This document shows, piece by piece, positions 3,674 through 29,978 of a stretch of DNA of 30,259 nt. Position 1 is the first letter of the stretch; the number at the start of each line of letters is the position of its first letter. Under the pieces are notes generated by a model. The model made no database searches, was not told the DNA's origin, and was given only the letters and a program-made list of their open reading frames with translations. The position numbers and the translations under genes are program-made. This stretch comes from Anaerolineae bacterium (GTDB lineage Bacteria; Chloroflexota; Anaerolineae; Aggregatilineales; Phototrophicaceae): the NCBI GenBank assembly GCA_034437615.1, contig DAOTTW010000226.1, positions 1 through 30,259 of the forward strand, given 5' to 3'.

Positions 3674-3750
3674 GCGGCTGACGCCGCCCGGACGCCAAGA
3701 ACGGCGTCCCTACAAAGCATCGTTCGCAGGGACGCGCCGAGGCGCGTCCG
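3674..3750 (+). repeat. Family-1 REP/BIME-like composite intergenic element, copy B
   Basis: GCGGCTGACGCCGCCCGGAC leader. Hairpin GGACGCC-aagaac-GGCGTCC (3690-3709) followed by CTAC. Second hairpin GCAGGGACGCGC-cgag-GCGCGTCC-GC (3726-3751). AAGAACGGCGT recurs at 3784-3794, at the flotillin stop. It lies between convergent genes (LysM + and flotillin -). Confidence 0.6.
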
Positions 3751-6258: not shown

Positions 6259-7668
6259 GTGAACAGCGCAACACTAGCGCCTTATCAGGATTTTGGGATG
6301 TTTAGTAGCCTCAGCAAACGCTTACAGGATGCTTTTGATAGCATCGGTAAGGGCGGAACCGTCACCGAGCAGGATTTGAAGGATGTGATGCGTGAAGTAC
6401 GCATGGCCCTGCTAGAAGCGGATGTCGCCCTGCCTATCGTGAAAGACTTCGTGAAGCAGGTCCGCGAACGCGCCATCGGTGCAGAGGTGCACAAGAAATT
6501 GCGGCCCGGTGAGCAGATCGTCAAGATCGTGCACGAAGAACTAGAAATCGTGCTCGGTGAACCTGGTCGCCTGACGTTTTCGGGCAGCCAGAAGCCGCAT
6601 GTGATTATGATGGTAGGCTTACAGGGGTCTGGTAAAACGACCAGCAGCGCCAAGCTCGCGCTTTACCTGATGAAAGAGATGAACCGCAAGCCGTTCTTGG
6701 TGGCCGCAGATACCTATCGCCCCGCAGCCGTCGACCAATTGGTGACGCTGGCCAAGCAGGTGAACGTCGAATATCACCAGGAAGGCACCAGTGCGACACC
6801 GCCGGAGATTGCGCGGCGTGGCCTGAAAGCGGCGAAAGAAGCCAACGCCGATGTCTGCATCATCGACACGGCAGGCCGCCTGCAAATTGACGAAACGCTG
6901 ATGCAGGAGCTAGAGCGCATCAAGGCCGACACCGAGCCGGCAGAGGTGCTGCTGGTTGCAGATGCCATGACAGGCCAGGAAGCGGTCAACATCGCGAAGG
7001 GCTTTAATGAGCGCGTCGGCATTACGGGCCTGGTGCTCACAAAGGTCGATGGTGATGCGCGTGGCGGTGCGGCGCTGTCCATGCGCCATGTAACGGGCGT
7101 GCCTATCAAATTCATGGGTACAGGCGAAAAAATCAGCATCCAGAACTTCGAGATGTTCCACCCGGACCGCATCGCACAGCGCATCCTGGGTATGGGCGAT
7201 GTGATGTCGCTGATTGAGACCGTCGAGCAGCAATTTGACGAGGAAGAGGCCGAACGCCTGCAAAAGCGCCTGATGGAGAATGAGTTCTCCTTGCAGGATT
7301 TCCTTGAGCAGCTTCAGAAGATCAGAAAGATGGGGTCTATCTCGCGCATTCTGGGCATGGTCCCTGGTATGAGCAAGCTGCAAAACAACGAGGCGTTCAA
7401 CGAGCAAGACATCGAATCGCGCATCAAGCGGGTGGAAGCCATCCTGAACTCTATGACGGCGGAAGAACGGCGGAAGCCCAAGCTGCTCTCGAAGGGGGGT
7501 GCCAGCCGCAAGAAGCGCATCGCGAAGGGTAGCGGCACCGAAGTGCGTGACATCAACGATGTCATCAAGCAATACCGCCAGATGAAGAAGATGATGGACG
7601 GGTTGCGCAAGGGCAAGATGCCCAATATCCCAGGCTTATCACCCAGCGACCTGAACCAATTACAGTAA
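6259..7668 (+). CDS. ffh: Signal recognition particle protein Ffh (SRP54 GTPase)
   Basis: N domain, G domain with GLQGSGKTT P-loop, DTAGR and TKVDGD motifs, and a Met-rich M domain. The true start is probably the internal Met at 6298 (MFSSLSKRLQ..., the typical Ffh N-terminus, with AGGA 8 nt upstream). The 13-codon extension to 6259 is doubtful. Confidence 0.95.
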   Translation: MNSATLAPYQDFGMFSSLSKRLQDAFDSIGKGGTVTEQDLKDVMREVRMALLEADVALPIVKDFVKQVRERAIGAEVHKKLRPGEQIVKIVHEELEIVLGEPGRLTFSGSQKPHVIMMVGLQGSGKTTSSAKLALYLMKEMNRKPFLVAADTYRPAAVDQLVTLAKQVNVEYHQEGTSATPPEIARRGLKAAKEANADVCIIDTAGRLQIDETLMQELERIKADTEPAEVLLVADAMTGQEAVNIAKGFNERVGITGLVLTKVDGDARGGAALSMRHVTGVPIKFMGTGEKISIQNFEMFHPDRIAQRILGMGDVMSLIETVEQQFDEEEAERLQKRLMENEFSLQDFLEQLQKIRKMGSISRILGMVPGMSKLQNNEAFNEQDIESRIKRVEAILNSMTAEERRKPKLLSKGGASRKKRIAKGSGTEVRDINDVIKQYRQMKKMMDGLRKGKMPNIPGLSPSDLNQLQ

Positions 7669-11761: not shown

Positions 11762-13531
11762 ATGAGTAACGACGACCTACGCAATGCGATCAACGCCTTC
11801 AGTGACAACTCAACCAGTGACGAAGAGACCTCTTTGCTGCGCAAGATCAAGAATTTGCCGAAAGACACCGTCGCAGAGGAGAACGAAAACGAAGAGGATT
11901 TCAGCGAAGACGATGCTATCGGTGATGACGTGAACCGCGAAGATGCCGACAGCGAAGACGACGAGGCATACGACGAAGAAGACTTAACCGGTCTAGCGCT
12001 CGCAGATGACCCGGTTCGTATGTACCTCAAGGAAATCGGTCAGGTGCCGCTGCTGAATAGCAACCGCGAGACCCGGCTCAGTACCCAACTGGCCGCCGAA
12101 AACCTGCTGCAAGAATTAACAGACAAACTCGCCAGCCTGGAACGCTTTGGCAGTGAGGGCGCACCTGATAAGGACGCGGCCAAAGGCAAAAAGGCCAACA
12201 AAGAGGCGCGTTCTGTAAAGGACAAGGCATCTAAGGCTGCTGCGGTCGTGAGCGGTGAACAGGCGGCCAATGGCACGGGCGACGGCCAACAACCTGCGCC
12301 GCTGCCGAATGCTCTGGACGTGACGCGCAGTGCTTATCTCTATCTGGAGGAAAAATGGCAAGCTGCCCTGCAAACGGCTGCTGAACTGGAAACCGAGCCA
12401 CCCGACCTGCGCGAACTGATTGACGAGATCGAAGCAACAAACAAAAACTGGGATCAAGACGGCGATTCCTACATGCGCAAATACTTCAAGCAGGGTGATT
12501 GGGGGCGCGATGCAGAGTGGACGGCCTACGTCAGCGAATTGTTTGACGTGGTCCATGCGCTGCATCTGATCCCGCCCGTACAGCAGATGCAGCTACGCGG
12601 CCACTATCGCAAGCACAACACGCTGCCGGGCTTGAATGAATTTACAGCGTGGCTAGAAGACGACGAGGACCCCCTAGAAGAAGCCCGCTTTGCCCATGAG
12701 CGCGTCGAACAGCGTGCAGAAATGGCCGTCGAAGCGCTGACGCGGGCTAACCTGCGCCTGGTGGTCAGCGTGGCGAAGCGTTACATGGGGCGCGGCATCG
12801 GCTTCCTTGACCTAATTCAAGAAGGTAACCTGGGTCTGCTGCGTGCTGTCTCCAAGTTCGACCATACGAAGGGCTATAAGTTCAGCACCTATGCGACGTG
12901 GTGGATTCGGCAGGCCATCAGCCGCGCCATAGCCGACCAAGCCCGCACGATTCGCATTCCGGTGCATATGGTGGAGACGATTAACCGCCTGATGCGCGTG
13001 CAGCGTGAATTGCTGCAAACGTTGGGCGCAGAGCCAAGCGCAGAGCAGATCGCGCTGGAAATGGACATCCTGCCAAAAGAAGACGTGGACGCCATCAAAT
13101 TCCTGCGCAAAGAGGGCGCACACCTGGACCCCTCGTTGCAGCGCAAGCTGCGCCGCGCCGCGCAGAAAGTGCGCAAAATCATGCGCATTAGCCAGGAACC
13201 GATGAGCCTGGATATGCCCATCGGCCAAGAAGACAGCAGCCAACTCGGTGATTTTATCCCTGATGACAACATGCCCGGCCCGGTGGATTCAGCCAGCCGC
13301 CAATTGCTGAAAGAGCAAATTAGCTCCGCGCTGGGTGTGCTCAGTGACCGTGAGCGCGAGGTGCTGCAAATGCGCTTCGGCCTGATGGACGGCCAAGATC
13401 ACACGCTGGAAGAGGTCGGCAAGTATTTCGGCGTGACGCGAGAGCGCATCCGGCAGATCGAAGCGAAGGCGCTGCGTAAGCTGCGGCACCCTACCCGGAG
13501 CCGCCAACTACGTGATTACCTTGAGATGTAG
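11762..13531 (+). CDS. rpoD: RNA polymerase primary sigma factor (sigma-70 family, group 1) with acidic N-terminal region
   Basis: Region 1.2 ([16 protein letters not shown]). Region 2 ([37 protein letters not shown]). Region 3 and region 4 HTH ([29 protein letters not shown]). N-terminal Asp/Glu-rich low-complexity stretch. Confidence 0.95.
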
Positions 13532-13592: not shown

Positions 13593-14549
13593 CTACTCGT
13601 ACAAGCGTGGGTCTAGCGCGTCGCGCAGGCCATCCCCCACGAAGTTGAAGCCCAACACCGTCAGCATGATCGCCAGACCAGGGAACACAGCATACCACCA
13701 CGCGCTCGTGAAGTAATTGCGGCCCTGGTCGATCATCGTGCCCCAGCTCGCATTCGGAATCTGTACGCCGACGCCCAGGAAGCTCAGCGTAGACTCGGCC
13801 AGAATCGCGCCAGCGATGCCCAGCGACGCCAGCACGATTGAGGGTGCAAGGGCATTCGGCAGCAGGTGACGTACCATAATGCGCACATTAGACGCGCCCA
13901 TTGCACGCGCCGCGATCACAAATTCACGGCTCTTGAGCGCTAGCACCTGGCTGCGCATCATACGGGCGTCCGCTGGCCAGCCGATCAGCCCCAACGCGAA
14001 GAAAATACTGATCTGGATCGGCTGCAAGCCCAACGCCGTGAACACCGTGAAGAGCGGGATCACTTCCGGGTCGATCAGGTTCACCCACACAATCAGGAAC
14101 ATCAGGCCCGGTATGGCAAAAACGGCGTCCGTCAGGCGCATGATGAAATCATCCACCCAGCCGCCGACCCAGCCCGAAATCGGGCCCAACGAGATGCCGA
14201 TGGTGATGGCGACGGTCTGCGCCACAAATGCAATCACTAGCGAAATGCTTGCGCCGTAAAGCAAGCGGCTGAAGATGTCACGGCCAAAATTATCGGTCCC
14301 CAGCGGATATTCAGCGTTCGGGGGCGTCAGGCGGTTCATGGCGCTGATCTTGTTGGGTTCGTGTGGCGCAATCCAGGGTGCCAGCACCGCCGCTAAGATC
14401 ATCACCACAACGATAATCAGGCCGACCACAGCAATACGATTACGGAAGAAGGCCCGCCAGAAGCGGCCTCGTGCTTTTGCGGCCATCGTCGGTGATAAAA
14501 CAGCGACGTTTCGGCCTTCTGCGGGTTGTGGTGCGGTATCAGTTGCCAT
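13593..14549 (-). CDS. ABC transporter permease, DppC/OppC-like (peptide/nickel family)
   Basis: Multi-TM protein with the binding-protein-dependent transport EAA-like loop (SREFVIAARAMGASNVRIMVRHLLPNALAP) and the N-terminal extension typical of OppC/DppC. Confidence 0.9.
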   Translation of the reverse strand: MATDTAPQPAEGRNVAVLSPTMAAKARGRFWRAFFRNRIAVVGLIIVVVMILAAVLAPWIAPHEPNKISAMNRLTPPNAEYPLGTDNFGRDIFSRLLYGASISLVIAFVAQTVAITIGISLGPISGWVGGWVDDFIMRLTDAVFAIPGLMFLIVWVNLIDPEVIPLFTVFTALGLQPIQISIFFALGLIGWPADARMMRSQVLALKSREFVIAARAMGASNVRIMVRHLLPNALAPSIVLASLGIAGAILAESTLSFLGVGVQIPNASWGTMIDQGRNYFTSAWWYAVFPGLAIMLTVLGFNFVGDGLRDALDPRLYE

Positions 14550-14573
14550 GCGCTCTGCCTTCTATGTAGGGTG

Positions 14574-15518
14574 TTATCGGTAGCTGATGCGTGGGTCGAT
14601 CAGCGCATACACCAAATCGGTCAACAAGTTGACGACCAGGTAAATCATCGCGCCGAAGATCAAGATGCCCATAATCACCGGGGTATCCCGCGTCTGAATA
14701 GCAGGCACAATCGCACGGCCCAGCCCCGGCCAATTGAAAATCGTCTCCGTCACCAGCGAGCCAGTCATCAGCGCCGCGATTTGCAGGCCGATGACGGTAA
14801 TCACCGGGATGAGCGCGTTGCGCATCTGATGCCGTAGCAGCACACTGCGGTCAGCCAGGCCCTTCGATTGCGCCGTTTTGATGTAATCCTGACCCTGAAC
14901 TTCCAGCATGGAGGAGCGCGTGACGCGGGCGATCACCGCCGACAAATTGGTGCCGAGCACGAGCGAAGGCAGCACCATATACCACAGGTTGCCGTCACCA
15001 TAGCCCGCCACCGGGAAGAGCGCGATGCCCGTTGCCGATTGCGCCAGTAATAATTGAGCGATCAGCGCTTGCCAGAAAACAGGCATCGAGATGCCGATTA
15101 ACGCAAAGATCATCAGCGTGTGGTCGATCCAGGTGTATTGCTTCAGCGCCGCGATGACACCCGCCGGCACACCGATCAGCAGCGCTACGATCATGCCGCC
15201 CGTCATCAGTTGCAGCGTGCGTGGCAGGCGATAGCCGAGGATGTTGATAACCTCTTCGCGCTGAATAAACGAACGGCCCAGGTCGCCCTGCAAAAAGTCC
15301 GTCAGGTATTCAAAATATTGTTCATGAAAAGGCCGATTGATGCCGAGTTCGGCGGCGATTTCTGCAACTTGCTCATCGGACATGCGCTCACATTCTTCAC
15401 CGATCACGGCGCAGATGGGGCTACCAGGCATCATGTACGACAGGCCAAAGAGAATCGTCAGGATAATAAATAGGGTCGGGATGACCTGCAAAATGCGCCG
15501 GATCAGGTATTGGGTCAC
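14574..15518 (-). CDS. ABC transporter permease, DppB/OppB-like
   Basis: MTQYLIRRILQVIPTLFIILTILFGLSYMMPGSP N-terminus typical of DppB/OppB, and an EAA loop region (YIKTAQSKGLADRSVLLRHQMRNALIPV). GTG start at 15518 is the first start after an in-frame stop. RBS GAGAG. Confidence 0.9.
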   Translation of the reverse strand: MTQYLIRRILQVIPTLFIILTILFGLSYMMPGSPICAVIGEECERMSDEQVAEIAAELGINRPFHEQYFEYLTDFLQGDLGRSFIQREEVINILGYRLPRTLQLMTGGMIVALLIGVPAGVIAALKQYTWIDHTLMIFALIGISMPVFWQALIAQLLLAQSATGIALFPVAGYGDGNLWYMVLPSLVLGTNLSAVIARVTRSSMLEVQGQDYIKTAQSKGLADRSVLLRHQMRNALIPVITVIGLQIAALMTGSLVTETIFNWPGLGRAIVPAIQTRDTPVIMGILIFGAMIYLVVNLLTDLVYALIDPRISYR

Positions 15519-15576
15519 GATGGATGCTCTCTATATCAGGGTGTGGGGATTGGCTATTGTGCGCTTGTAATTGCAA

Positions 15577-15847
15577 GGCAGGGGCGTGCCCCTGCCAGAT
15601 TGATTGTCCAGGCTGCGTATTTGCGTATTGACGGGCGGATCATGATCTGACCCTGTACAATCGCATGATGGTAACGACTCAGCCCTCACCCCAAACCCCT
15701 CTCCCGAACGTGCCTTTGGCACTGGGAGAGCGGCTTTTAACAGCCTGCTTCCCCCTCTCCGTTGTTGTCTGGGTATGGTGAGAGAGGGAGATCGAGGAGG
15801 GGGTGAGGGCAAATTCGCGGGCAAAATAGGCCTACCTGAGTCGTTAC
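15577..15847 (-). promoter_or_regulatory. Structured intergenic region between the substrate-binding and permease genes: GC hairpin plus long nested inverted repeat
   Basis: GGCAGGGG-cgtg-CCCCTGCC (15577-15596). GTAACGACTCAG (15671-15682) pairs with CTGAGTCGTTAC (15836-15847). CCCTCACCCC (15683-15692) pairs with GGGGTGAGGG (15800-15809). CTCTCCC/GGGAGAG and GTGCC-ttt-GGCAC nest inside. ORFs 15531-15851(-) and 15775-16317(+) here are CT/GA-rich and spurious. Confidence 0.45.
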
Positions 15848-15864
15848 GCATGACGCTTGACAGC

Positions 15865-17517
15865 CTAGCGGTTCAGTTCCACATTCCACAGCGCAGCCGT
15901 ATAGGTGCCGCCGCCGCCGGGTTCAAAGCCTTCGATCCAGGGCTTCTGCAACCAGGAAACCTTGCTGTATGCGGACGGAATCACAACGGCGTCTTCCATG
16001 ATGATGTTGTGCGCCTGCTGATACAGGTCCTCGCGGGTCGCGGGGTCCAGTTCTGCACGCGCCTGATCCAGCAATTCGTTGACCGCTGCATTGTCATAGC
16101 GCATGGAGCCTTCACCCTGATAGATCAGGTAGTCGAACACGTCGGACGGGTCCACGAGGCCAGCGGCCCAGCCATTCTGGAAGATCATGGCGTCGTCCTC
16201 CACGATGCTATCCCAGTAGGTGCTGCCGTCTTCGATGATGAATTCGACCTCCATGCCGAGTTCGGTCAGCGCCTCCTGCCATACCACAACCTGCGCCTCA
16301 TCAGAGATGACCTCTAGCAAGTGAATCTCCATCACGGGCAAGCCTTCGCCATTCGGGAAGCCCGCTTCTTGCAGCAGTTCGGCGGCGCGTTCCAGGTCAT
16401 AGTTATAGATGACTGACGGCTCACTGGCTGGCATCGACGGCGGCAAGAAGCCCTGATCTGCTGGGAAGCGTGCGCCCTCTTCAAAGATGTCCCAGGCCGT
16501 TGAACGGTCGAGCGAGTGTGCTAGCGCCTGACGCACCAGCGGATTTTCGGCCAGGAAGCCCGTTTCCATGTTGAAGCCCCAGTAGCGCTGGTGCAGACCG
16601 GGCTTCTCGTTGAATTCCGCGCTGAATTCGTCGATGATGGCGGCACGCTGGCCCGATGGGAAGGCGAACAGGAAGTCAACGTTGTCTTCGCGGTAGTCCA
16701 GCAGTACGGTCTGTGCATCGCCGTAGTTGGTGAAGCGGATGCCATCGTTACGCGGCAGCCCTTCGATGTAGTAATCGGGGTTGGCTTCCAGGATCACGCG
16801 ATCCTCACGCAGCCATTCCACGAATTGATAGGGGCCTGTGCCAACGGGCGTATCGTTGAAGTCGTCGCCCAATTCCGTGTAAGCCTCTGGTGAGGTGATC
16901 GACACCATGCCGTTAATCAGGAACAGGCGGTTGGGAGCTTCCAGCGTGATCTGGAAGGTGGATTCATCCAGCACTTGCAAGCCGGGGATGTCCATATCAT
17001 CCAGCACCAGCGGCACCTCTTCAGCGCCTTCGTCAATCATGGCTTGCAGCGCTGCGGTGTATTCAGTCGCGCCTGCGATGGCCTGGAAGTTCGGGTTGCC
17101 GGATTGCAGCGAAATATCCTGGTCCGGGTGCAGCGCTACCTTGTAGTTCCACAGGATGTCACTGGCCGTGACTGCGCGGCTTTCCAGGTCTACATCTGCG
17201 ATGTCATGGAACAGCACGCCCTCACGGATGTTGAAGGTGAATACCTGCTGGCCGTCTGCGTTGGTGCTGACTTCCCAGCTTTCGGCAATGGCCGGGTCGA
17301 TGTCGCCCGTCACGCTGTTGTAGCGGGTCAGGCCCTCATAAATATTGCGGTTGACCGTACCAATGGAGATGGTATCCGCGATGAAGGGGTTCAGGTGCTC
17401 CGGGTCTACGGTGATCGGGTACTGGATGATGTCGGCATCATCCTGCGCACTGGCAGCGAATACCATGCTGACCAGCAACGCGAACATAGCAAAGAGGCTA
17501 AGTGTACGACGGTGCAT
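15865..17517 (-). CDS. ABC transporter substrate-binding protein, family 5 (peptide/nickel-binding)
   Basis: Signal peptide MHRRTLSLFAMFALLVSMVFAASAQ. 550 aa. Family-5 SBP features (GTGPYQFVEW, PGLHQRYWGFNM). First gene of the SBP-permease-permease operon. Confidence 0.9.
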   Translation of the reverse strand: MHRRTLSLFAMFALLVSMVFAASAQDDADIIQYPITVDPEHLNPFIADTISIGTVNRNIYEGLTRYNSVTGDIDPAIAESWEVSTNADGQQVFTFNIREGVLFHDIADVDLESRAVTASDILWNYKVALHPDQDISLQSGNPNFQAIAGATEYTAALQAMIDEGAEEVPLVLDDMDIPGLQVLDESTFQITLEAPNRLFLINGMVSITSPEAYTELGDDFNDTPVGTGPYQFVEWLREDRVILEANPDYYIEGLPRNDGIRFTNYGDAQTVLLDYREDNVDFLFAFPSGQRAAIIDEFSAEFNEKPGLHQRYWGFNMETGFLAENPLVRQALAHSLDRSTAWDIFEEGARFPADQGFLPPSMPASEPSVIYNYDLERAAELLQEAGFPNGEGLPVMEIHLLEVISDEAQVVVWQEALTELGMEVEFIIEDGSTYWDSIVEDDAMIFQNGWAAGLVDPSDVFDYLIYQGEGSMRYDNAAVNELLDQARAELDPATREDLYQQAHNIIMEDAVVIPSAYSKVSWLQKPWIEGFEPGGGGTYTAALWNVELNR

Positions 17518-21605: not shown

Positions 21606-21690
21606 GGCGGCTGACGCCGCCCCGGACACCCAATTGGGTGTCCTTACGGTTCACAGCGGTTTTGTAGGGACGTGCAATGGCACGTCCGCC
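21606..21690 (+). repeat. Family-1 REP/BIME-like composite intergenic element, copy D
   Basis: Leader GGCGGCTGACGCCGCCCCGGAC. Hairpin GGACACCC-aatt-GGGTGTCC (21624-21643) followed by TTAC. Second hairpin GTAGGGACGTGC-aatg-GCACGTCC-GCC (21664-21690). Stem cores differ from copies A and B but remain perfectly paired. Lies between a convergent + gene and the GT2 gene. Confidence 0.6.
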
Positions 21691-27780: not shown

Positions 27781-27815
27781 CAAGTTTGCGGACGCGCAGA
27801 AGCGCGTCCCTGCGA
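27781..27815 (+). repeat. Family-1 singleton extended palindrome (copy E): GTTTGC-GGACGCGC-agaa-GCGCGTCC-CTGCGAAC
   Basis: Perfect 8-bp stem identical to the copy-B second hairpin (GGACGCGC/GCGCGTCC). The 3' flank CCTGCGAAC is the reverse complement of copy B's 5' flank GTTCGCAGG. It lies 25 nt after the sulfatase-like gene stop, in the about 250-nt leader of the next gene. Confidence 0.55.
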
Positions 27816-29929: not shown

Positions 29930-29978
29930 GTAGGGGCTTAGCCTGCTAAGCCCTGGGTTTGGCAAGCCAAACCCCTAC
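29930..29978 (+). repeat. Family-2 double-hairpin REP-like element, intact copy
   Basis: GTAGG-GGCTTAG-cctg-CTAAGCC-ctg-GGTTTGG-caag-CCAAACC-CCTAC. Two perfect 7-8 bp stems are bracketed by complementary GTAGGGG...CCCCTAC ends. Lies 31 nt after the stop of the preceding gene. Confidence 0.65.

Follow-up and report, generated by a model that had tools for sequence, protein, structure and literature searches.

The substrate-binding protein (SBP) gene and the first permease gene of an ATP-binding cassette (ABC) operon in an Anaerolineae bacterium (Chloroflexota) are separated by a 346-nt intercistronic spacer, which raises the question of what this spacer contains. The operon lies on contig DAOTTW010000226.1 (assembly GCA_034437615.1), of which positions 1 to 30,259 were analyzed (the window), and the spacer occupies 15519-15864 on the minus strand, between the SBP stop and the first permease start. 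An initial annotation had described a GC hairpin and a long composite inverted repeat in the spacer, and had considered a message-stabilizing stem-loop, a MITE (miniature inverted-repeat transposable element) and a small structured RNA as explanations. Checked against the sequence, every repeat that it described was where it had been placed, and its interpretation is partly supported overall. The gap holds two unrelated features, a 20-nt GC hairpin and a 177-bp element. We consider it highly probable that a once ordinary intercistronic spacer of about 161 nt, which already had one GC hairpin, later received a 177-bp MITE insertion; subtraction of the MITE and one copy of its target-site duplication (TSD) from the spacer leaves 161 nt.

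Folding of the spacer was compared with that of dinucleotide shuffles. The minus (mRNA) strand, whose fold the initial annotation had proposed to check, gave z = -5.5 and the other strand z = -4.1, and none of 100 shuffles equaled the native sequence. The repeats, together with folding beyond the shuffle expectation, indicate that the features of the gap are real and not due to chance.

Covariance model matches and family alignments place the MITE at 15671-15847, where the plus strand has the family-consensus orientation and the operon mRNA carries the reverse complement. The element lies 17 nt past the SBP stop. Its left terminal inverted repeat (TIR) is GTAACGACTCAG (15671-15682, plus), which is invariant at the start of family copies by design of the seed, with flanks that diverge directly outside it. 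The right TIR, CTGAGTCGTTAC (15836-15847, plus), is complementary to the left one at 12 of 12 positions, and the 12-mer occurs nowhere else in the window (0.08 occurrences expected). Within the TIRs lie the inner arms CCCTCACCCC (15683-15692) and GGGGTGAGGG (15800-15809), a nested stem CCCCTCTCCC / GGGAGAGCGG (15696-15705 / 15724-15733) enclosing the mini-hairpin GTGCC-ttt-GGCAC (15710-15722), and a second stem TCCCCCTCTC / GAGAGGGAGA (15750-15759 / 15782-15791). A lineage-specific insert of 26 nt (15810-15835, plus) separates GGGGTGAGGG from the right TIR; it is unmatched in copies from other metagenome-assembled genomes (MAGs), which differ by lineage in what they carry at this place. The right arm of the window's own subfamily reads CAAATTCGCGGGCAAAATAGGCCTAC. 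An open reading frame (ORF) across the element had no Pfam match. As RNA, the 177 bp fold with -84.7 kcal/mol on the plus strand and -89.7 kcal/mol on the mRNA strand.

An imperfect direct repeat of 8 bp brackets the element, with a left copy GCATGATG (15663-15670) that matches the right copy GCATGACG (15848-15855) at 7 of 8 positions; the right copy is separated from the SBP stop codon by 9 nt. The repeat contains the palindrome CATG, which explains why the stem in the initial annotation ran beyond the 12-mers. For the family as a whole, the k bases on either side of 23 complete copies were compared, with mismatched pairs of left and right flanks as the control. A flank-repeat signal was obtained solely at k = 8, where 4 of the 23 copies matched at 7 or more of 8 positions, compared with 0.4% of the controls. 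Two of these flanking repeats are perfect (CTACAGGG in locus L029 and TCACTTTT in L035), and the other two, in the window and in L011, are 7/8 matches. For the window, an empty site with a single TSD copy would be expected to read ...AATCGCATGA[T/C]G directly joined to CTTGACAGC.

Copies of the element are dispersed over unrelated loci. One genome per species (the GTDB representatives) was scanned with the pattern GTAACGACTCAG-N(0-30)-CCCTCACCCC, and 40 loci were obtained; apart from L008 and L033, they belong to three MAGs of Anaerolineae (F14_30, F17_39 and F7_116). A covariance model of the left 64 nt of the element (R1) was searched against approximately 350 kb of fetched loci and the window. 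It scored 89.3 bits (E = 6e-21) on the window copy (15671-15735), its only match in the window, and returned 40 further copies of at least 40 bits outside it; the loci with orthologous operons gave no match.

Oriented extraction of the copies showed that the sequence outside the terminal GTAAC is unrelated from copy to copy. The complete copies (n = 23) are 85-274 bp long and built to one plan. The TIR is followed by CCCTCACCCC, AA(A) and CCCCTCTCCC; a loop containing a mini-hairpin of 5 bp then leads to GGGAGAGGGG, and a linker joins this to another module of the same type in inverted orientation, after which come GGGGTGAGGG, a segment specific to the lineage and the right TIR. Even within the family, the middle and right parts are unconserved. 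Two pairs of the mini-hairpin in the first module show compensatory changes across lineages (in six sequences G:C became U:A, and in four C:G became U:A), which indicates that local pairing matters to the element. In other copies, the two TIRs match at 10 to 12 of 12 positions, and in those of F14_30 and F7_116 they differ consistently at two positions (GTAACGACTCAG versus GTAACTGCTCAG); this consistent asymmetry fits ends recognized by a protein better than a selected RNA stem. No copy falls within an ORF of at least 150 aa, the two apparent overlaps being of 22 nt (an ORF antisense to a folD-like gene) and 4 nt. Many are a few tens of nucleotides from a gene end, and about 17 have a contig end no more than about 400 nt away.

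A scan of metagenome contigs with the pattern gave five matches, among which L049 was the sole clear family member. In L047 and L048, and in L008 of the genome scan, the 12-mer lies 14-24 nt from a canonical short-loop triplex motif (TM, discussed below), a pairing attributed to chance because TMs are abundant; L050, L051 and, from the genome scan, L033 were likewise set aside as chance matches. Neither the pattern scan of viral contigs nor a search of the translated MITE against 5.8 billion predicted proteins, which sought copies from the same lineage, gave any match, and a full-text literature search for the TIR sequence or for Anaerolineae MITEs found none.

Several observations on the make-up of the family were made in passing. 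A second subfamily has the same 12-bp end and a different interior (L017:1187, L029:2848, L040:7837 and L044:5016); its sequence, GTAACGACTCAG-CTTG-CCCCYCACCCC-GGCGCTAAAGCGCC-ACCCCTCCCCC..., again contains TM-like blocks. In six loci, the hairpin module CACTTTTTCCAGAAAAAGTG stands directly against MITE ends (L009:5660-5700, L013:2937-2976, L015:7921-7960, L023:4990-5029, L037:2450-2489 and L045:2286-2325), which suggests nested or mosaic repeats resembling bacterial interspersed mosaic elements (BIMEs), and in F17_39 GGGTTTCACCCCACACCC is found upstream of this module. The 18-nt loop that separates CCCCTCTCCC from GGGAGAGGGG has, in L045 (2221-2262), the opposite orientation from that in every other copy, which looks like an inversion across the short inverted repeat.

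Judged by sequence comparison, the 177-bp element shows every testable hallmark of a MITE (TIRs, a TSD of fixed length, and a small, non-coding, multi-copy and dispersed character), and we conclude that it is mobile non-coding DNA inserted here because of its TIRs, the 8-bp TSDs, the approximately 40 unrelated intergenic copies and the assembly breaks described below. The MITE-like insertion considered in the initial annotation was therefore the correct description of the composite repeat, which is dispersed, intergenic, bounded by TIRs, associated with 8-bp TSDs and missing from orthologous operons.

Several points weigh against this reading. No recognizable TSD was found in 19 of the 23 complete copies, many of which abut other repeat modules, and the window TSD itself has one mismatch. 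The mosaic make-up and the adjacent modules are also reminiscent of elements of the BIME or repetitive extragenic palindrome (REP) type. No autonomous element with matching TIRs was present in the approximately 350 kb of fetched loci, in which TIR pairs 0.5-4 kb apart enclose ordinary genes. BLAST and the covariance model gave no second copy in the 30-kb window, and the empty-site comparison is limited to relatives whose proteins are 69-75% identical. Nesting and recombination between copies are a likely explanation for the copies that lack a TSD.

The mosaic character is the starting point for a different account, in which the element would be a REP/BIME- or REPIN-like palindromic mosaic that owes its spread to a RAYT (Y1) transposase or to recombination, and not to a DDE transposase. 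Its modular units of 85-274 bp, the adjoining CACTTTTTCCAGAAAAAGTG and GGACGC-TTT-GCGTCC modules, the inverted inner segment in L045, the missing TSD in most copies, and the REP-like GGAC...GTCC and GTAG...CTAC hairpins of the same genomes are all in keeping with such an origin. The exact 8-bp direct repeats of four of the 23 copies, two of them perfect and of no other length, are not, because movement by RAYT or of the IS200/IS605 type leaves no duplication. The element also ends in GTAAC, and not in the GTAG or CGTC tags of the REP super-families (PMC3733652), and no RAYT gene turned up in the loci, in which no systematic RAYT search was made. With GTAAC ends and a target duplication, the element departs from REP/REPIN sequences, which are palindromes of 20-40 bp with a GTAG or CGTC tag at one end, a linked RAYT gene and no duplication of the target, and we regard this account as very improbable.

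For the preferred reading, a MITE inserted into an ordinary spacer, the proposed course of events is as follows. The MITE would have entered the spacer 9 nt past the SBP stop codon, duplicating 8 bp of the target, and would have been mobilized in trans by a DDE-type transposase. An IS66-like enzyme is a lead for the mover, suggested by the 8-bp duplication and the GTAA ends: IS66 family elements share a target duplication of 8 bp and ends that begin with GTAA (GTAAGCG in IS66; PMC11946415). GTAACGA and GTAAGCG match at four of seven positions, or at six with one gap, and neither an IS66-type gene nor any other transposase was found near any copy. The ISL3, IS256, IS6 and IS1595 families likewise make duplications of approximately 8 bp.

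The closest known parallels are the Correia elements of Neisseria and the enterobacterial ERIC/IRU MITEs, which are also non-coding, 100-200 bp long and bounded by TIRs and a TSD, with many intergenic copies, often just past a stop codon, that form a long hairpin in mRNA. The element described here differs from them in its unrelated sequence, in its TSD of 8 bp, compared with TA for Correia, and in an interior made of BoxC/TM-like modules. Its host also differs: it belongs to the Anaerolineae (Chloroflexota), a group for which a 2024 review of prokaryotic MITEs lists no such element (PMC10969869).

The locus of the window is also present in NCBI MAG GCA_964530125.1 and in microbial-mat metagenomes, and six public contigs encode a protein identical to the window SBP (15865-17517). 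The element is identical in L001 and L003, and L002 has one substitution, in the spacer outside the element; overall identity to the window is 99.5-99.8% for these three assemblies. Three Logan assemblies, made from different sequencing runs, end at the same base, 164 nt past the SBP stop and just before the conserved terminal approximately 30 nt of the element. A shared break inside the element is what k-mer assemblers, which stop at repeats, would produce, and the breaks thus point indirectly to further copies in the community of the window. The family, which has no name as yet, interrupts metagenome assemblies at predictable places.

Orthologous SBPs with 69-73% amino-acid identity were identified, and in five cases the same two permease genes come next. 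The five SBP-permease spacers are 71, 98, 102, 102 and 111 nt long, and all lack the element. Its presence in the window lineage and absence from the orthologous operons argue for a lineage-specific insertion, with relatives that are too distant for an empty site to be compared at the nucleotide level. The part of the window spacer outside the MITE contains a tandem TGCGTATT x2 (15614-15629) and an 11-nt inverted repeat, GATTGTCCAGG / CCTGTACAATC (15602-15662). None of the fetched loci has a match to this unique sequence, which makes the spacer, as it was before the insertion, about 60 nt longer than the orthologous ones.

Neither a promoter nor a terminator separates the element from the operon in a consensus scan of 15300-16100, which gave no terminators and one promoter-like site, within the permease gene and not in the gap. 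For this reason, the element is presumed to be co-transcribed with the operon, and on the mRNA it would fold into a hairpin of about -90 kcal/mol, in all likelihood a neutral one. Effects of RNase III and RNase E on co-transcribed MITEs have been documented for Correia and ERIC (PMC10969869). By analogy with these, the hairpin could be a substrate of RNase III, cut at the paired TIRs; it could also shield the SBP message from 3' exonucleases. The 5' half of the element in the mRNA, which is very C-rich and G-poor and is made before its pairing partner, could in addition load Rho and so raise polarity on the permease genes. At most, the hairpin would modulate the SBP:permease ratio, and the null expectation is a neutral passenger.

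A stronger version, in which the MITE has been exapted and is kept because its long hairpin sets the SBP:permease ratio through stabilization, a processing site or polarity, seems to us quite unlikely. Its position 17 nt past the SBP stop is where stabilizing stem-loops act, its fold on the mRNA strand is strong (-89.7 kcal/mol), and Correia and ERIC provide a precedent (PMC10969869). The element is also present here in all six public assemblies that carry the locus, but with assemblies that are 99.5-99.8% identical, fixation is weakly informative. Copies between co-directional genes show no significant orientation bias, with 9 of 13 in the same orientation to transcription (9:4). The orthologous operons do without the element and already have a small hairpin, and neither promoter nor terminator activity was seen in E. 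coli for PIT/BoxC sequences, which the interior of the element resembles (PMC4666352). Should the insertion indeed change the SBP:permease ratio, the locus would be a natural case of an ABC operon tuned by a MITE.

The initial annotation had also considered a small structured RNA, or an elaborate regulator specific to this operon. The strong folding z-scores and the two compensatory pairs of the mini-hairpin would suit a dedicated structured RNA in the spacer, such as a riboswitch-like permease leader or a small RNA. A search of the whole window against Rfam at gathering thresholds, a check that the annotation had itself suggested, gave no match to a known family. For the spacer at E up to 10, only noise was returned (a mammalian long non-coding RNA, mir-263 and the CPEB3 ribozyme), and the best sub-threshold scores were 15.6 bits against a gathering threshold of 100 and 15.5 against 51.3. 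The same sequence stands beside unrelated genes about 40 times, is missing from the orthologous operons, has middle and right parts that are unconserved within the family, and has no promoter or terminator consensus in the gap around it. A dedicated RNA is therefore extremely improbable, and a candidate "novel regulatory RNA" is removed at this locus, most of whose structure is selfish DNA.

The second feature of the gap is a perfect GC hairpin of 20 nt, GGCAGGGGC-GT-GCCCCTGCC (15577-15596, minus), which can be drawn as 9+9 nt with a 2-nt loop or as 8 bp with a 4-nt loop. It has a folding energy of -17.5 kcal/mol and lies 58 nt upstream of the permease start and, once the MITE and one TSD copy are removed, 83 nt past the SBP stop. 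The consensus scan did not return it as an intrinsic terminator, and its stem is followed by only TT, with no U-tract. The window has 12 perfect hairpins with stems of 8 bp or more, four times the 3.0 obtained in shuffles, and 10 of the 12 are 20-130 nt downstream of a stop codon, some of them within the rpsP-KH-rimM cluster. One strong GC hairpin is found 25-45 nt after the SBP stop in all five orthologous spacers, with a stem of 10-13 bp in four and 6 bp in L052, and an orphan SBP 3' end (L059) likewise carries one. The hairpins of L060 and of L059 are followed by a T-run and are canonical terminators, whereas the other orthologues, like the window, lack the T-run. The hairpin sequences of the orthologues are mutually unrelated, and two are GTAG...CTAC palindromes (L054 and L061), so REP-like repeats may have come to fill this SBP-distal position again and again, in place of a hairpin passed on by descent.

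To judge from these positional counterparts and from the window-wide excess of hairpins past stop codons, the hairpin at 15577-15596 is an ordinary recurrent feature of gene 3' ends, native to the spacer, and it is probably a 3'-end stabilizer or attenuator of the SBP message. The proposal of a stabilizing or attenuating stem-loop in the initial annotation remains plausible for this small hairpin only, given its counterparts in five of five orthologous spacers and at many window genes, and does not hold for the 177-bp element. By analogy, it is the small hairpin, and not the MITE, that is the counterpart of the classical SBP-distal stem-loop of the malE-malF type. It shares with the malE-malF REP and other intercistronic stabilizers of ABC operons its placement between SBP and permease genes, where every orthologue examined has a hairpin. 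In contrast to the malE-malF REP, the sequences of the orthologue hairpins are unrelated and some are of REP type (GTAG...CTAC), and a stabilizing role at this locus would follow from analogy; the 177-bp element is not of this kind. A plain hairpin is thus the sole feature of the gap with a positional counterpart in every orthologous operon.

REP-like hairpins also occur elsewhere in the window. Five perfect hairpins of 20 nt have GGAC...GTCC ends (2302-2321, 3730-3749, 21624-21643, 21668-21687 and 27790-27809; for example GGACGCAGC-AA-GCTGCGTCC). All are intergenic, 33-132 nt past a stop codon and without U-tracts, and look REP-like or terminator-like; a related GGACGC-TTT-GCGTCC adjoins MITE ends in L012 and L034. 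A 49-nt GTAGGGG...CCCCTAC element at 29930-29978 consists of two adjacent 9-bp hairpins, 30 nt past a metH-like gene. The sole public contig with the exact protein beside it (L062, 3.4 kb) stops approximately 15 nt beyond the element, which suggests another repeat.

The interior of the MITE bears on a longer-standing question. The motif CCCTCTCCC-loop-GGGAGAGGG-TTA/CCG-GGGTGAGGG was first named BoxC and later PIT (Holder et al. 2015, PMC4666352). TMs sometimes occur as inverted pairs, and an isolated strand of the E. coli TM forms a triplex in vitro, with none detected in duplex DNA or in vivo (PMC4666352). They have been linked to local sequence variability, and no association with transposons, phages or plasmids was found (PMC4666352). 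In the window, module 1 reads CCGCTCTCCC - 18-nt loop - GGGAGAGGGG - TTT - GGGGTGAGGG (15683-15733, minus), and module 2, which is degenerate and inverted, reads TCCCCCTCTC - 22-nt loop - GAGAGGGAGA - TCGAGGA - GGGGGTGAGGG (15750-15809, plus); the second module is clearer in the copies of the F14_30 MAG. To our knowledge, the spread and the function of the motif have been unexplained since the 1990s.

When compared with Table 1 of PMC4666352, module 1 has the three-block Y-R-R arrangement (CCCTCTCCC, its complement GGGAGAGGG, then GGGTGAGGG). The first loops of modules 1 and 2, at 18 and 22 nt respectively, exceed the short loop of the definitions, which is 1-6 nt for ITxF and 0-10 nt for Hoyne (PMC4666352); of the second loops, that of module 1 (3 nt) is within the definition, and that of module 2 has 7 nt. 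From this block order, the CCCTC/GAGGG tracts read as two inverted copies of BoxC/PIT-like modules with enlarged loops, which are not members by the ITxF criteria; the initial annotation had noted the tracts but had not linked them to this motif. A blastn search of plasmids with the element matched only 25-33 nt, (AG)CCCTCACCCCAAACCCCTCTCCC, in Oscillatoria, Azospirillum, Methylobacterium and other cyanobacteria and proteobacteria. A 25-mer of module 1 is identical (25/25) on an Oscillatoria plasmid and near-identical on an Azospirillum plasmid.

The modules share with BoxC/PIT/TM_ECO (Bergler 1992; Hoyne & Maher 2000, 2002; Holder et al. 2015, PMC4666352) the block order CCCTCTCCC - loop - GGGAGAGGG(G) - 2-3 nt - GGG(G)TGAGGG, a strictly intergenic location and the occurrence as inverted pairs. 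They differ from E. coli BoxC in the first loop, which is 18-22 nt here and contains its own mini-hairpin, compared with 3-5 nt in E. coli. In the window pair the GGGTGAGGG blocks point outward, and in the E. coli hrpB-mrcB pair inward; the window pair is bounded by TIRs and a TSD, whereas the K-12 hrpB-mrcB pair has no comparable TIRs. As far as the literature was searched, a BoxC-type pair inside TIR/TSD boundaries has not been described. Among 5,426 complete genomes of E. coli, approximately 35% lack the hrpB-mrcB pair (L058, E. coli K-12 164,450-164,740). In CFT073 (L063), a 15-nt sequence, GAAGACCAAAGCAAA, replaces approximately 117 nt, with no clean TSD. Extension of the MITE model to E. 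coli BoxC was dropped, as this "empty" site does not differ by a clean element plus TSD.

Repeats of the BoxC/TM type inside an element with transposon hallmarks make the question of how the motif is dispersed a testable one. We tentatively put forward a broader proposal, which we think unlikely as it stands. The TM, in Anaerolineae at least, would be the structural core of an active transposon family with TIRs and a TSD, and subterminal modules of MITEs, mobilized by an IS66-like DDE transposase, would be the form in which the motif spreads or the source from which it arose. The "genomic instability" of TM sites in other phyla would then be a footprint of transposition or excision, and not of triplex DNA.

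The genes around the spacer were assigned as follows, all on the minus strand. The SBP gene (15865-17517), the first of the operon, encodes an SBP_bac_5 protein of 550 aa (Pfam PF00496, E = 1e-60). The first permease gene (14574-15518) has a GTG start and encodes 314 aa (PF00528 and PF19300), with the same gene call in L001-L003, and the second (13593-14549) encodes an OppC-like permease of 318 aa (PF00528 and PF12911). The operon (13593-17517) is thus of the form SBP-permease-permease without adjacent ATPase genes, and the orthologues are likewise arranged in three genes; its end is convergent with rpoD (11762-13531). Elsewhere in the window, a 16-nt inverted repeat with 94% complementarity and arms 167 nt apart (6362-6377 / 6545-6560) lies within the coding region of ffh (SRP54).

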